Below, piece by piece: positions 1-14,465 of a stretch of 64,000 nt of DNA. A program made the translations under genes and the position numbers. Below the pieces are notes generated by a model, which saw only the letters and a program-made list of their open reading frames with translations, had not been told where the DNA came from and did not search any database. Location of the stretch: assembly GCF_017348835.2 (NCBI RefSeq), contig NZ_CP071375.1. One strand, given 5' to 3'. The stretch is from Escherichia coli. Its GTDB lineage: Bacteria > Pseudomonadota > Gammaproteobacteria > Enterobacterales > Enterobacteriaceae. How positions within the stretch are numbered: position 1 is the first letter of the stretch; every line of letters starts with the position of its first letter.

Positions 1-548
1 TGGATTACCAGACTGGCCCGATTATCTGGGGTGAACCAGGCACTAACGGTCAGCACGCGTTCTACCAGCTGATCCATCAGGGAACCAAAATGGTACCGTG
101 CGATTTCATCGCCCCGGCTATCACCCATAACCCGCTCTCTGATCATCACCAGAAACTGCTGTCTAACTTCTTTGCTCAGACCGAAGCGCTGGCGTTTGGT
201 AAATCCCGCGAAGTGGTTGAGCAGGAATATCGCGATCAGGGTAAAGATCCGGCAACGCTTGACTACGTGGTTCCGTTCAAAGTGTTCGAAGGTAACCGCC
301 CGACCAACTCTATCCTGTTGCGCGAAATCACTCCGTTCAGCCTGGGTGCGTTGATTGCGCTGTATGAGCACAAAATCTTTACTCAGGGCGTGATCCTGAA
401 CATCTTCACCTTCGACCAGTGGGGCGTGGAACTGGGTAAACAGCTGGCGAACCGTATTCTGCCAGAGCTGAAAGATGATAAAGAAATCAGCAGCCACGAT
501 AGCTCGACCAATGGTCTGATTAACCGCTATAAAGCGTGGCGCGGTTAA
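1..548 (+). CDS. pgi: glucose-6-phosphate isomerase, C-terminal part (5' end lies upstream of window)
   Basis: ORF ending 548 translates to the Pgi C-terminus (...[36 protein letters not shown]...); frame is open back to the window edge. Confidence 0.9.
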
Positions 549-559
549 TCATCGTTCAT

Positions 560-652
560 GCCTGATGCCGCTATGTAGGCCGGATAAGGCGTTCACGCCG
601 CATCCGGCAACCGATGCCTGATGCGACGCGGTCGCGTCTTATCAGGCCTACA
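560..652. repeat. REP/BIME palindromic elements
   Basis: gccggataaggcgttcacgccgcatccggc and gcctgatgcgacgc...gtcttatcaggcctac motifs typical of enterobacterial REP. Confidence 0.8.
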
Positions 653-1059
653 GGTCGATGCCGATATGTACATCGTATTCGGCAATTAATACATAGCACG
701 ATTGATTAAATAACCTTAATAACAATGCCGACGTTATGTCGGCATTGTTTTATCAGATAAATCCCCTTGTCTGTTATTTAACGGAAATCATACCGTGAGG
801 TTAATCCTAAAATAGATTTTTAATCGTGATTGATTTCGGAAAATACTCAGATTAATTACTTTTACTTTTATTTTAACATTATGATTTTTAATATTATTTA
901 TATATAAGTTGTAGCTTATATTTGATATTCATTCCAATTATCCTAAAACCCCATCTCTAATTCCCCGCGCCGTAATTCGCATGCTTTAGTTGTGTATACT
1001 CGATCCCGCCCGAAATGTTTTTGGGTAAATCTCCATTCATTCAATGAAGGGAAATTGTT

Positions 1060-1302
1060 ATGAAAAAAGTTCTGTATGGCATTTTTGCCATATCTGCGCT
1101 TGCGGCGACTTCTGCGTGGGCTGCACCTGTACAGGTGGGCGAAGCGGCAGGGTCGGCAGCAACGTCGGTTTCGGCGGGGAGTTCCTCCGCGACCAGCGTC
1201 AGCACCGTAAGCTCGGCGGTGGGGGGCGCGCTCGCGGCAACCGGTGGCGGTGATGGTTCTAATACCGGGACCACAACAACCACGACCACCAGTACCCAGT
1301 AA
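1060..1302 (+). CDS. yjbE: small secreted Gly/Ser/Thr/Ala-rich protein, first gene of yjbEFGH exopolysaccharide-associated operon
   Basis: 80-aa ORF with signal peptide [21 protein letters not shown] and low-complexity tail ending [10 protein letters not shown]; position after pgi. Confidence 0.85.
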
Positions 1303-1415
1303 TAAAGTATGTATCCCCAAAATAATTCGAGTCATCACATCTGTGGCTTGAAGTATGAAGGGATTTACCATAACCACACTCCGGTGTGGTTATTCTGCCC
1401 CTCTGGAGAAGAGTC

Positions 1416-2054
1416 GTGAAGCGACCTGCATTCATTCTTATCTGCCTGCTATTACAGGCCTGTTCAGCCACGACTAAAGAGCTGGGCAATTCACTGTGGG
1501 ACAGTCTGTTCGGTACGCCAGGTGTACAGCTGACGGACGATGATATTCAAAATATGCCCTACGCCAGCCAGTACATGCAGCTTAATGGCGGGCCGCAGTT
1601 ATTTGTGGTGCTGGCCTTCGCTGAAGACGGACAACAAAAATGGGTCACTCAGGATCAGGCCACTCTCGTCACACAACATGGTCGTCTGGTGAAGACTCTG
1701 CTTGGCGGCGACAACTTGATTGAGGTGAATAACCTTGCCGCCGACCCGCTGATTAAACCCGCACAAATCATTGATGGTGCAACTTGGACGCGCACGATGG
1801 GCTGGACCGAATACCAGCAGGTACGCTACGCCACCGCACGCTCAGTCTTCAAATGGGATGGCACCGATACCGTCAAAGTCGGCAGCGATGAAACCCCGGT
1901 TCGCGTGCTGGACGAAGAAGTCTCCACCAACCAGGCGCGCTGGCATAACCGCTATTGGATCGACAGCGAAGGGCAAATTCGCCAGTCGGAACAGTATCTC
2001 GGCGCGGATTATTTCCCGGTGAAAACCACCCTCATCAAGGCGGCAAAACAATGA
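1416..2054 (+). CDS. yjbF: lipoprotein YjbF (GfcB-like)
   Basis: ORF 1386..2054; likely start is GTG at 1416 giving MKRPAFILICLLLQAC lipobox; overlaps yjbG start by 4 nt. Confidence 0.8.
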   Translation: MKRPAFILICLLLQACSATTKELGNSLWDSLFGTPGVQLTDDDIQNMPYASQYMQLNGGPQLFVVLAFAEDGQQKWVTQDQATLVTQHGRLVKTLLGGDNLIEVNNLAADPLIKPAQIIDGATWTRTMGWTEYQQVRYATARSVFKWDGTDTVKVGSDETPVRVLDEEVSTNQARWHNRYWIDSEGQIRQSEQYLGADYFPVKTTLIKAAKQ

Positions 2055-2788
2055 TCAAACAAACTTTTGTCGCGTTGCTTTTGAGTGTGGGAGCGTCATC
2101 GGTCTTCGCGGCAGGAACCGTCAAGGTGTTCAGCAATGGCAGCAGTGAGGCCAAAACACTAACAGGCGCAGAGCATTTAATCGATCTGGTAGGCCAACCG
2201 CGGCTGGCAAACAGCTGGTGGCCCGGTGCGGTGATCAGCGAAGAGCTGGCAACGGCGGCAGCATTGCGTCAGCAGCAGGCGTTGCTGACACGGCTGGCAG
2301 AACTGGCCGCAGACTCCAGCGCTGATGATGCCGCTGCGATTAACGCCTTACGCCAGCAAATTCAGGCGTTGAAAGTGACGGGTAGGCAAAAAATCAATCT
2401 TGATCCCGATATCGTCCGCGTTGCCGAACGCGGTAACCCGCCGTTGCAGGGGAACTACACGCTGTGGGTCGGACCACCGCCGTCCACGGTCACGTTGTTC
2501 GGGCTTATCAGCCGTCCTGGCAAGCAGCCATTCACTCCAGGTCGCGACGTGGCGAGCTATCTCTCTGACCAGAGCCTGCTCAGCGGTGCGGATCGCAGCT
2601 ACGCGTGGGTGGTTTACCCGGACGGACGCACGCAAAAAGCGCCGGTGGCTTACTGGAACAAGCGTCACGTAGAGCCGATGCCCGGCAGCATTATTTATGT
2701 TGGCCTCGCGGACTCCGTCTGGAGTGAGACGCCTGATGCCCTTAACGCCGACATTCTTCAGACTCTGACGCAGCGGATACCTCAATAA
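2051..2788 (+). CDS. yjbG: periplasmic protein YjbG (GfcC-like)
   Basis: ATG at 2051 giving [20 protein letters not shown] signal peptide; 245 codons; listed ORF starts earlier at an alternative codon. Confidence 0.8.
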
Positions 2789-4884
2789 TGAAAAAAAGAC
2801 ATCTGCTTAGCTTACTGGCGCTGGGCATTAGCACAGCTTGCTACGGCGAAACATATCCTGCGCCCATTGGTCCGTCGCAGTCGGATTTCGGTGGCGTAGG
2901 ATTATTACAAACGCCCACGGCTCGCATGGCGCGGGAAGGGGAGTTGAGTCTGAACTATCGCGATAACGATCAGTACCGTTATTACTCAGCTTCAGTGCAA
3001 CTCTTCCCGTGGCTGGAAACAACGCTGCGCTACACCGACGTGCGCACCCGGCAGTACAGCAGCGTCGAAGCGTTCTCTGGCGATCAAACGTATAAAGATA
3101 AAGCCTTCGATCTCAAACTGCGTTTGTGGGAAGAGAGTTACTGGCTGCCGCAAGTGGCGGTTGGTGCGCGGGATATCGGCGGTACGGGGCTGTTTGATGC
3201 GGAATATCTTGTTGCCAGCAAAGCCTGGGGGCCGTTCGATTTTACGCTCGGCCTGGGCTGGGGGTATTTGGGCACCAGCGGTAATGTGAAAAATCCGCTC
3301 TGTTCAGCCAGTGATAAATATTGCTATCGCGATAACAGCTACAAACAGGCGGGATCTATCTACGGTAGCCAGATGTTCCACGGTCCTGCCTCACTGTTTG
3401 GCGGCGTGGAATACCAGACGCCCTGGCAACCGCTGCGCCTGAAACTGGAGTATGAAGGCAATAATTATCAGCAGGATTTTGCCGGTAAGCTGGAGCAAAA
3501 AAGTAAGTTTAACGTCGGGGCGATTTATCGCGTTACCGATTGGGCCGACGTTAACCTTAGCTATGAACGTGGCAACACCTTTATGTTTGGCGTCACGCTG
3601 CGCACCAACTTTAACGATCTGCGCCCGTCTTACAACGATAACGCCCGCCCGCAATATCAACCGCAGCCGCAGGATGCCATTTTGCAGCATTCGGTGGTGG
3701 CGAATCAGTTAACGCTGTTGAAATACAATGCCGGACTTGCCGATCCGCAGATCCAGGCGAAAGGCGATACGCTGTATGTTACCGGCGAGCAGGTGAAATA
3801 TCGTGATTCGCGCGAAGGGATCATCCGTGCTAATCGGATCGTGATGAATGATCTGCCGGATGGGATCAAGACGATCCGCGTTACGGAAAATCGCCTTAAC
3901 ATGCCGCAGGTGACGACGGAAACGGATGTCGCCAGCCTGAAAAATCATCTCGCCGGAGAGCCGTTGGGCCACGAAACGAAGCTGGCGCAAAAACGCGTCG
4001 AGCCAGTGGTTCCGAAGTCCACCGAGCAGGGCTGGTATATCGACAAATCGCGCTTTGATTTCCATATCGATCCGGTGCTGAACCAGTCGGTCGGTGGCCC
4101 GGAAAACTTTTACATGTATCAGCTGGGCGTGATGGGAACGGCAGATTTGTGGCTGACGGACCATCTGCTCACCACCGGCAGCCTGTTTGCAAATCTTGCC
4201 AACAACTACGACAAGTTTAACTACACCAATCCGCCGCAGGACTCGCACTTACCGCGCGTGCGTACCCATGTGCGCGAGTATGTGCAGAACGATGTCTATG
4301 TGAATAACCTGCAAGCCAACTACTTCCAGCATCTGGGCAACGGCTTCTACGGTCAGGTCTACGGCGGCTATCTCGAAACCATGTTTGGCGGTGCGGGGGC
4401 TGAGGTGTTGTATCGCCCGCTGGACAGCAACTGGGCGTTTGGTCTGGATGCCAACTACGTTAAACAGCGCGACTGGCGTAGCGCGAAAGATATGATGAAA
4501 TTCACCGACTACAGCGCGAAAACCGGACATCTGACCGCGTACTGGACGCCATCTTTCGCCCAGGACGTGTTGGTGAAAGCGAGCGTTGGGCAGTATCTGG
4601 CAGGGGATAAAGGCGGCACGCTGGAGATCGCCAAACGCTTTGATAGCGGTGTGGTGGTGGGTGGCTATGCCACGATCACGAATGTTTCGAAAGAGGAGTA
4701 CGGCGAAGGGGACTTCACCAAAGGCGTGTATGTCTCTGTACCGTTGGATCTCTTCTCGTCTGGCCCGACACGCAGCCGTGCGGCGATTGGCTGGACGCCG
4801 CTGACGCGTGACGGTGGTCAGCAACTTGGGCGTAAGTTCCAGTTGTATGACATGACCAGCGACCGTAGCGTCAATTTCCGCTAA
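2788..4884 (+). CDS. yjbH: outer-membrane beta-barrel protein YjbH (GfcD-like)
   Basis: 698-aa ORF, signal peptide [21 protein letters not shown]-terminal ...SVNFR; start overlaps yjbG stop by 1 nt. Confidence 0.85.

Positions 4885-13094: not shown

Positions 13095-14465
<1,371 letters not shown>

Follow-up and report, generated by a model that had tools for sequence, protein, structure and literature searches.

Identity of the pgi-yjbE locus

What does the long AT-rich stretch between pgi and yjbE of Escherichia coli control, and what constrains the small, low-complexity protein that yjbE encodes? We examined positions 700-1302 of the window, by which we mean the whole 64-kb stretch of DNA analyzed, and established that they comprise the pgi-yjbE intergenic region and yjbE, with which the Rcs-activated envelope-polysaccharide operon yjbEFGH begins (Table 1). 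The 3′ end of pgi opens the window, with its stop at position 548, and positions 540-1420 were 100% identical to E. coli strain PE164, in which RefSeq annotates pgi, yjbE, yjbF, yjbG, yjbH, a periplasmic protein (Pfam YjbT), psiE and xylE. The yjbE product matched PF11106 (YjbE) over its full length (positions 1-79; 108.3 bits against a gathering cut-off of 27.9; E = 2.3e-31). Given that the Pfam families scored far above their cut-offs and that the PE164 match and the RefSeq annotation agreed, the first-pass annotation, which had assigned the gene as yjbE of yjbEFGH, was correct about the locus. The operon and that description of it are already known annotation, and the basic picture is unchanged.

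Of 5426 complete E. coli genomes, 5418 carry the 621 bases from 700 to 1320 as a single copy, with identities of 90-100%; in strain PCN061, yjbEFGH-psiE-xylE is missing beside an IS1. Downstream of yjbH in the window lie yjbT, a hypothetical gene, psiE and xylE. The yjbF/yjbG and yjbG/yjbH reading frames overlap by 4 nt and 1 nt, respectively, in agreement with the operon coupling described in PMC8592465. A PADLOC search of YjbE through YjbH yielded no defence-system match. Experimental evolution of E. coli repeatedly yields mutations in yjbEFGH when the selected cells are mucoid or resist predators, phage or sedimentation (PMC8117528, PMC8540638). The yjbE-yjbF spacer carries a 73-nt ERIC-like insertion in some strains, and an IS1 insertion in this spacer activates Rcs (PMC8117528).

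Table 1. Features of the pgi-yjbEFGH region, in window coordinates.
Feature	Position	Strand	Remarks
REP-element cluster 3′ of pgi	578-648	+	Rfam naRNA4 RF02564, 79.5 bits; absent in some strains
Rfam RF02053 STnc430 match	714-863	-	68.6 bits versus gathering score 47; model positions 1-162
pgi terminator hairpin	721-747	+	12-bp stem followed by TTTTAT; usable in both directions
Box 1, TGAGGTTAATCCTA, candidate RcsAB operator	796-809	+	starts 264 bp upstream of ATG
Box 2, TCGGAAAATACTCA	836-849	+	inverted half-site TCCGAAA on minus strand
AT-rich spacer	850-935	.	15-19% GC; hypervariable within E. coli
Box 3, half-site TCCTAAAA	941-948	+	directly upstream of putative -35
Invariant block, putative core promoter	985-1010	+	-10-like TATACT (995-1000)
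Conserved 5′ leader	1026-1059	+	Shine-Dalgarno AAGGGA (1047-1052)
yjbE coding sequence	1060-1302	+	80-aa precursor; RefSeq yjbE; Pfam PF11106
YjbE predicted signal peptide	1060-1122	+	MKK, hydrophobic stretch, AWA|AP
YjbE hydrophobic stretch	1189-1242	+	
YjbE codon 56	1225-1227	+	rare V56G change
YjbE T7 run	1270-1290	+	preceded by GGGDGSNTG
yjbE-yjbF spacer	1303-1415	+	structured, fold z = -4.1; hairpins 1307-1368 and 1370-1393
yjbF	1416-2054	+	GfcB-like lipoprotein; Pfam PF11102
yjbG	2051-2788	+	GfcC-like protein; Pfam PF20616 + PF06251
yjbH	2788-4884	+	GfcD-like outer-membrane protein; Pfam PF06082

Candidate Rcs operators in the yjbE leader

Alignment of 81 distinct sequences revealed conserved blocks at the pgi terminator (721-747), TGAGGTTAATCCTAAAA (795-812) and TTTCGGA (835-842), with further blocks at TTATCCTAAAACCCC (937-952), TTTAGTTGTGTATACTCGATCCCGCC (985-1010) and the 34 bases 5′ of the ATG. 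Three putative Rcs sites, designated boxes 1 to 3, fall in this leader. Box 1 agrees with the RcsAB core at each of its six strongly conserved positions and includes a perfect TCCTA half; it was invariant in 11 E. coli strains, and its core was conserved in 80 sequences. A second RcsAB core at 836-849 (box 2) is matched on the minus strand, and box 3, a half-site, is conserved across genera as well as in the 11 strains. RcsB-type half-sites conserved family-wide (TCCTAAAA, inverted TCCGAAA, TCCTAAAA) occur at three places in the leader, at distances of approximately 260, 220 and 115 bp from the ATG. The sequence TCCTAAAA has two copies in the 64 kb, those of boxes 1 and 3, both within the leader.

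The loose RcsAB core T.AG.....TC..A occurred at close to its background frequency in the window as a whole, with 24 matches in 64 kb versus 22 expected. The leader holds two matches within 54 bp, 40 bp apart, versus approximately 0.14 expected in 360 bp, and this pair coincides with the best-conserved blocks of the 81-sequence alignment. Across genera, variation in the boxes was limited to positions that are degenerate in the RcsB consensus, and these positions varied independently. The distance between boxes 1 and 2 was either 40 or 51 bp, differing by an 11-bp indel; as this length corresponds to one helical turn, the two boxes stay in helical phase.

The search for RcsAB boxes, which the first-pass annotation had proposed, recovered two conserved core matches, and the stricter patterns had no counterpart. 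The RcsAB box consensus is reportedly TaAGaatatTCctA, said to go back to Wehland and Bernhard in 2000; at up to three mismatches it had no match in the leader, box 1 having four. The strict RcsB box, TN(G/A)GAN4TC(T/C)NA (PMC7913699), likewise had no match in the leader, because box 1 has G rather than A at position 5. The weaker RcsB box TN(G/A)GAN4(A/C)CTNA from the same source (PMC7913699) does describe box 2 in the window, where K-12 has a one-base difference. A Reg-Seq preprint gives TCCTAAAAT as the canonical RcsB right half-site and lists yjbE among the predicted RcsB targets. Rcs control itself, as claimed in the first-pass annotation, is documented in the literature: expression of yjbEFGH depends on RcsA-RcsB (PMC5461412, PMC5651002), and the yjbE operon is induced by colicin M (log2 ~5.7; PMC3599342).

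The position of box 1 has a parallel at rcsA. Upstream of K-12 rcsA, the sequence TAAGGATTATCCGA, which we take to be the rcsA RcsAB box, lies at -264 from the ATG, as does box 1, and the two share 10 of 14 bases; outside the box, the region upstream of rcsA and the yjbE leader had no significant similarity. Furthermore, boxes beginning with TGAG (of the TGAGG..TC..A type) were enriched approximately 5-fold upstream of distant yjbE-family genes (1.77 versus 0.36 per kb), in genes that have no pgi neighbour, including two beside an RcsA-like regulator.

A hypervariable AT-rich spacer between conserved sites

An AT-rich leader of roughly 300 bp had been described, and both of the runs quoted for it, ttttactttt (860-869) and atttatatataag (896-908), were present. 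The GC content of positions 700-1059 was 31%, and the leader contained the GC minima of the 64-kb window, namely 15% for the 100-bp segment at 808 and 19% for the 150-bp segment at 800, against a mean of 51% (s.d. 8-9%). The extreme AT part spans approximately 150 bp (about 800-950) within the AT-rich zone of approximately 300 bp.

Nucleotide diversity was distributed unevenly along this region. Among 11 diverse E. coli strains, pi was 0.017 in pgi, 0.062 at 700-860 and 0.087 at 861-960, with a peak of 0.127 at 850-899; it then fell to 0.007 at 961-1059, with 0 at 1000-1049, and was 0.011 in yjbE. The same pattern across segments was seen in six strains, and the last 100 bp 5′ of the ATG were nearly invariant. 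The proposal had counted on a leader that differs between strains, and among these 11 strains the leader is not invariant, its AT core being hypervariable. Family-wide, pgi remains the neighbour of yjbE, and the two are separated by a long AT-rich gap (334-510 bp, 30-42% GC); across genera the spacer is poorly conserved in sequence and always AT-rich. The gap differs from strain to strain, at 354, 498 or 511 bp. REP copies, which form the cluster 3′ of pgi, occupy a median of 38 places per genome. The pgi terminator has a fold energy of -18.8 kcal/mol (z = -5.9) and is conserved across genera.

The first-pass annotation had further suggested that this DNA is curved and bound by nucleoid proteins. 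Under a wedge model, which gives an approximate result, the end-to-end ratio of positions 770-969 lay at the 32nd percentile of the window, the same as in shuffles, and the suggestion of curvature was not borne out. The H-NS motif TCGATAAATT, at up to two mismatches, was absent from positions 700-1059. Both results weigh against the alternative that the AT-rich stretch is mainly an H-NS/StpA silencing platform and that Rcs chiefly relieves silencing, although the former is approximate and the latter concerns high-affinity motifs. That alternative draws on the lowest GC of the window, on an AT-richness kept in all genera despite sequence drift, and on a layout parallel to that of rcsA, with a box at -264 followed by AT-rich DNA. 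The gene rcsA is silenced by H-NS, and this parallel makes silencing of the AT-rich yjbE leader by nucleoid proteins plausible. We regard silencing as the main role of the stretch as quite possible, although on balance we do not favour it. Silencing would also be compatible, as a co-mechanism, with our preferred reading of the leader as a control region activated by Rcs.

Downstream of the spacer, the block at 985-1010 was at least 95% conserved over the 81 sequences and identical in the 11 strains. A promoter and terminator scan of positions 540-1450 returned no consensus match and no strong sigma-70 site, so the promoter is presumably non-consensus, with a weak -35. In the fold of positions 1005-1085, a small hairpin includes the Shine-Dalgarno sequence and was no better than in shuffles (z = -0.5).

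YjbE within and outside the operon

The description of the yjbE product as an 80-aa low-complexity protein with a poly-Thr run near its end was confirmed: Ala, Gly, Ser and Thr account for 70% of precursor residues and for 78% of those in the predicted 59-aa mature protein (88% when Val is included), and the C-terminus reads T7-S-T-Q. Judged by eye, the N-terminus has the n-h-c layout of a signal peptide, with AWA|AP fitting the -3/-1 rule, and this is kept in 29 members. A search of PDB sequences identified no YjbE relative among solved structures. The AlphaFold monomer was of low confidence (pLDDT 56), with one helix spanning the signal peptide and a second at residues 44-61. A YjbH-linker-YjbE fusion, modelled from a shallow paired alignment of 14 rows, reached a pLDDT of 45.8, with the YjbE part at approximately 21-27, and was uninformative on interaction. 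That the role of YjbE is unclear, as the first-pass annotation stated, agrees with the literature, in which the role of YjbE/GfcA is still called unknown (PMC8592465, PMC11494523).

An exhaustive HMMER search of 1.84 billion representative proteins retrieved only 28 YjbE-family clusters at 50% identity. The distant members share a layout of signal peptide, GEAAG-like motif, Gly/Ala/Val/Leu hydrophobic stretch, GGGDGS(N)TG, Thr run and ST. Among nine distant PF11106 members looked up in their contigs, two were followed by yjbF(GH) and seven were orphans without yjbFGH nearby. One of these seven lies beside phage tail genes, and two are divergent to a gene for a 188-aa GerE-type regulator, whose best NCBIfam match was RcsA (E = 6.5e-13, below the family cut-off).

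With seven of nine distant members being orphans, dependence of YjbE on YjbFGH is not general, and these members argue for some autonomy of YjbE. An alternative extends this to the E. coli protein: YjbE would serve the Rcs stress response on its own, as a small protein exported to the envelope, and would be only co-transcribed with YjbFGH and not their client. Besides the orphans, with their RcsA-like or phage-tail neighbours, the structured spacer between yjbE and yjbF speaks for it, as does one published data set in which yjbE was the most strongly induced gene of the operon. However, the order yjbE-yjbF-yjbG-yjbH was strict in all 80 loci, found via YjbF in 80 Enterobacteriaceae species, and two more distant members also precede yjbF; the gfc operon has an analogous first gene; mucoid clones with mutations in yjbE and in yjbG/yjbH have each been seen (PMC8540638); and the genomes of the orphans may encode YjbFGH or GfcBCD at other loci. 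We consider full autonomy in E. coli possible but rather unlikely, and retain the reading in which YjbE would act with YjbFGH.

The STnc430 match upstream of yjbE

The conserved blocks at 714-863 could instead belong to a minus-strand sRNA gene, STnc430, with its promoter in the AT-rich core and its end at the bidirectional pgi hairpin. The match to RF02053, on which the first-pass annotation is silent, is full-length and above the gathering score, in the window as well as in 11 of 20 other genera; a strong hairpin stands at the predicted 3′ end, and on the minus strand the hexamer TAAAAT, which resembles a -10 element, precedes position 863 by a few bases. The family, however, goes back to a computationally predicted Salmonella candidate between pgi and yjbE, for which Table S3 of Sittka et al. 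(2008) gives 0 cDNA reads from either library and no Northern blot, and RefSeq annotates nothing at 714-863. The central helix of the model pairs exactly the two half-site blocks. Across 80 sequences this helix displayed no covariation (score 0.058 versus 0.084 in shuffles), its only variable pair was broken in 26 of the 80, and RNAalifold recovered no consensus structure for STnc430. Boxes of the same type also precede yjbE-family orphans that have no pgi terminator. Since covariation, consensus structure and reads are all missing, we read the conservation as that of DNA operators and the pgi terminator, and an sRNA gene as distinctly improbable. STnc430 at pgi-yjbE is probably regulatory DNA rather than an RNA gene, as judged from its pattern of conservation, which means that a curated Rfam sRNA family here probably describes a regulatory DNA region.

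Conservation of the YjbE threonine tail

The first-pass annotation had suggested that the Thr run may vary in length between strains. We compared its length using two queries. A 109-nt query across the run reached at least 95% identity in 5316 of 5420 genomes, with 103 genomes in the 90-95% band; a query for the T9 allele (from a locus encoding an 82-aa YjbE) had exact matches in 45 genomes and 95-99% matches in a further 58, the remaining 5313 falling in the band expected from a 6-nt gap. These identity bands indicate that approximately 98% of E. coli genomes carry T7 and approximately 1.9% carry T9, so that the run is near-invariant and the suggestion does not hold. Beyond these genomes, exactly T7 was found in 77 of 83 sequences, from 78 other Enterobacteriaceae species and five further E. 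coli strains, written in at least 25 distinct codon strings that mix ACC, ACA, ACG and ACT.

The C-terminal region of YjbE is almost invariant across the family, while YjbF identity falls to 64%. Mean pN/pS against K-12 was 0.021 for YjbE residues 53-80 (28 aa), 0.086 for mature YjbE and 0.155 for YjbF. Low-complexity YjbE, above all its tail, is under strong purifying selection and is the most constrained protein segment among those examined. Such constraint, which places YjbE among the most conserved parts of yjbEFGH, makes it probable that the tail serves as a specific recognition element. The window itself has Gly in place of the otherwise invariant Val56, a change found in 2 of 5418 genomes, both from pigs. 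Sporadic loss-of-function alleles of yjbE also occur; an O111:H8 strain, for instance, carries a 1-bp deletion.

That the poly-Thr run is a hypervariable, slippage-prone repeat diversifying a surface peptide between strains is extremely improbable, for the T9 allele in approximately 103 of 5420 genomes and a +9-bp yjbE insertion that arose in an evolved mucoid clone (PMC8540638) stand against T7 in approximately 98% of E. coli and in 77 of 83 sequences family-wide, at least 25 synonymous versions with mixed codons, and a tail pN/pS of 0.02. A contingency-type variable amino-acid repeat is largely refuted by the fixed T7, the mixed codons and the lack of broad length polymorphism.

Proposed mechanism

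Collectively, we lean towards the explanation that this stretch is the Rcs-activated control region of yjbEFGH followed by the gene of an exported YjbE, which would act with YjbFGH and whose Thr tail would be recognized; we hold this to be somewhat probable. RcsA-RcsB~P would bind the distal boxes and the proximal half-site and, once bound, may activate or de-repress the promoter with the weak -35 and TATACT at 995-1000. The AT-rich spacer would provide flexible or silenced DNA, for which composition and length would matter above sequence. YjbE would be exported by Sec and, once in the envelope, may act with the outer-membrane module of YjbF, YjbG and YjbH as its partner or client, with the exact Thr tail of YjbE being specifically recognized.

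A bolder conjecture, which we think improbable, makes YjbE a tiny family of autonomous exported mini-proteins controlled by RcsA/RcsB, with a conserved T7-ST tail read by a specific partner. The tail might then be where surface polysaccharide is attached or primed, or it might be a strand completing the laterally open, 13-stranded YjbH/GfcD barrel, and STnc430 would be the operator region of the regulon.

The first-pass description of the locus is correct, and its emphasis on variability and curvature is partly wrong. The operon yjbEFGH belongs to the standard set of the Rcs envelope-stress regulon. Our additions to a known locus are modest: a fixed T7 tail, a hypervariable spacer between invariant sites, a doubtful STnc430 family, and orphan yjbE-family members beside RcsA-like regulators. 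Upstream of yjbE, three candidate RcsB sites are now defined, along with a freely evolving spacer.

Comparison with known systems

The window carries the same locus as K-12 yjbEFGH (Ferrieres et al. 2007; Ionescu and Belkin 2009, both as cited in later papers), with the same gene order and flanks (pgi 5′; yjbT and psiE 3′). It differs from K-12 in one YjbE residue, the rare V56G allele, in box 2 (ACTCA versus ACGCA in K-12), and in a slightly longer REP-containing gap after pgi. Compared with the RcsAB box system, the yjbE leader has three dispersed putative half-sites rather than one canonical box.

Relative to the group 4 capsule genes, the proposed paralogy of yjbEFGH with gfcABCD holds for three of the four genes. 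The YjbF/GfcB, GfcC and YjbH/GfcD families occur in order with short overlaps, and identities to the K-12 gfc locus were 39% for YjbF/GfcB, 43% for YjbG/GfcC and 65% for YjbH/GfcD. For YjbE and GfcA, homology was undetectable: BLASTP gave E = 1.4, GfcA had no PF11106 hit at E <= 1, and hhalign aligned the signal peptides only. In the group 4 capsule operon gfcABCDE-etp-etk, the wza/wzb/wzc paralogues gfcE, etp and etk are linked, whereas yjbH has no such genes on its 3′ side.

Both operons nevertheless open with a small gene, and YjbE and GfcA share operon position and layout only. In this layout the signal peptide is followed by a polar part of low complexity, then by a hydrophobic stretch of Gly/Ala/Val, and finally by a C-terminus rich in Gly/Asp/Ser/Asn and then in Thr. 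At 101 aa, GfcA is the longer of the two, and its main Thr-rich part comes before the hydrophobic stretch. It has been speculated that GfcA may be glycosylated and exported via GfcD (PMC8592465), for which an open 13-stranded barrel is predicted (PMC11494523). By analogy, the proposed glycosylation of GfcA and the open GfcD barrel suggest what kind of recognition the YjbE tail may undergo.

Natural variation at yjbE and its flanks

Alleles in which yjbE or the whole yjbEFGH operon has been lost occur naturally. In E. coli O111:H8 05-3004, yjbE is a pseudogene through a 1-bp deletion in GGTGGGCG (L104, the locus from this strain, 1261-1436), strain PCN061 is without yjbEFGH-psiE-xylE, with an IS1 element adjoining the gap, and several YjbE products in the protein database carry a frameshift. 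Codon 56 of yjbE (window 1225-1227) encodes Gly in the window through two closely spaced T-to-G changes, at 1224 and 1226, but is otherwise invariantly Val; among 5418 genomes, just two had the Gly56 allele, those of the pig-derived strains PE164 and F2_81.

The REP cluster is polymorphic among E. coli strains, leaving a pgi-yjbE gap of 354, 498 or 511 bp. Downstream of yjbE, the first hairpin of the yjbE-yjbF spacer is interrupted in several strains by a 73-nt ERIC/IRU-like element, which gives a spacer of 186 nt (L100, another E. coli locus, 1504-1689) compared to 113 nt without it. An IS1 insertion in this spacer has been reported to activate Rcs (PMC8117528).

Features in the window
Feature	Position	Observation
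REP-element cluster 3' of pgi	555-690	match to Rfam naRNA4, 79.5 bits
STnc430 match	714-863, minus strand	Rfam RF02053, score above gathering threshold
yjbE-yjbF spacer	1303-1415	two hairpins, U-tail absent; strong fold, z = -4.1
yjbJ promoter region	24190-24215	AATAATCCTAAG
yjbJ	24294-24503
340-aa ORF	25379-26401	AAGATAAATTAGATAATAAAGATGCAAC... repeats

The yjbE leader and related candidate regulatory sites

The yjbE leader matches the sRNA family STnc430, whose source is a predicted candidate with 0 reads and whose helix showed no covariation across 80 sequences; STnc430 may be a regulatory DNA region that was entered as an sRNA. Elsewhere in the window, the yjbJ promoter region contains a TCCTA half-site, as does the yjbE leader, and for yjbJ a preprint describes osmotic activation by an unidentified factor whose right half-site is RcsB-like. 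Separately, the stretch that holds the 340-aa ORF ranks second in the window for AT-richness; the ORF begins with three 30-bp tandem repeats encoding a repeated 10-residue unit.

Most distant YjbE-family genes were solitary, with yjbFGH not nearby (loci including L090 4131-5255, L097 3126-4255 and L092 5001-5240), and one adjoined phage tail genes. Two had as divergent neighbour a gene for a 188-aa GerE regulator, with RcsA as its best match, and two TGAGGA..TC..A boxes lay in between.

The region upstream of rcsA in K-12 showed no significant similarity to the yjbE leader outside the box. The rcsA box, TAAGGATTATCCGA (L109, the K-12 rcsA region, 13761-13774), starts 264 bp before the rcsA start codon, a distance identical to that between the start of box 1, the candidate RcsAB operator of the leader (window 796-809), and the yjbE start codon. 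Beyond each box the DNA is AT-rich and includes TTACTTTACTTT-like runs.
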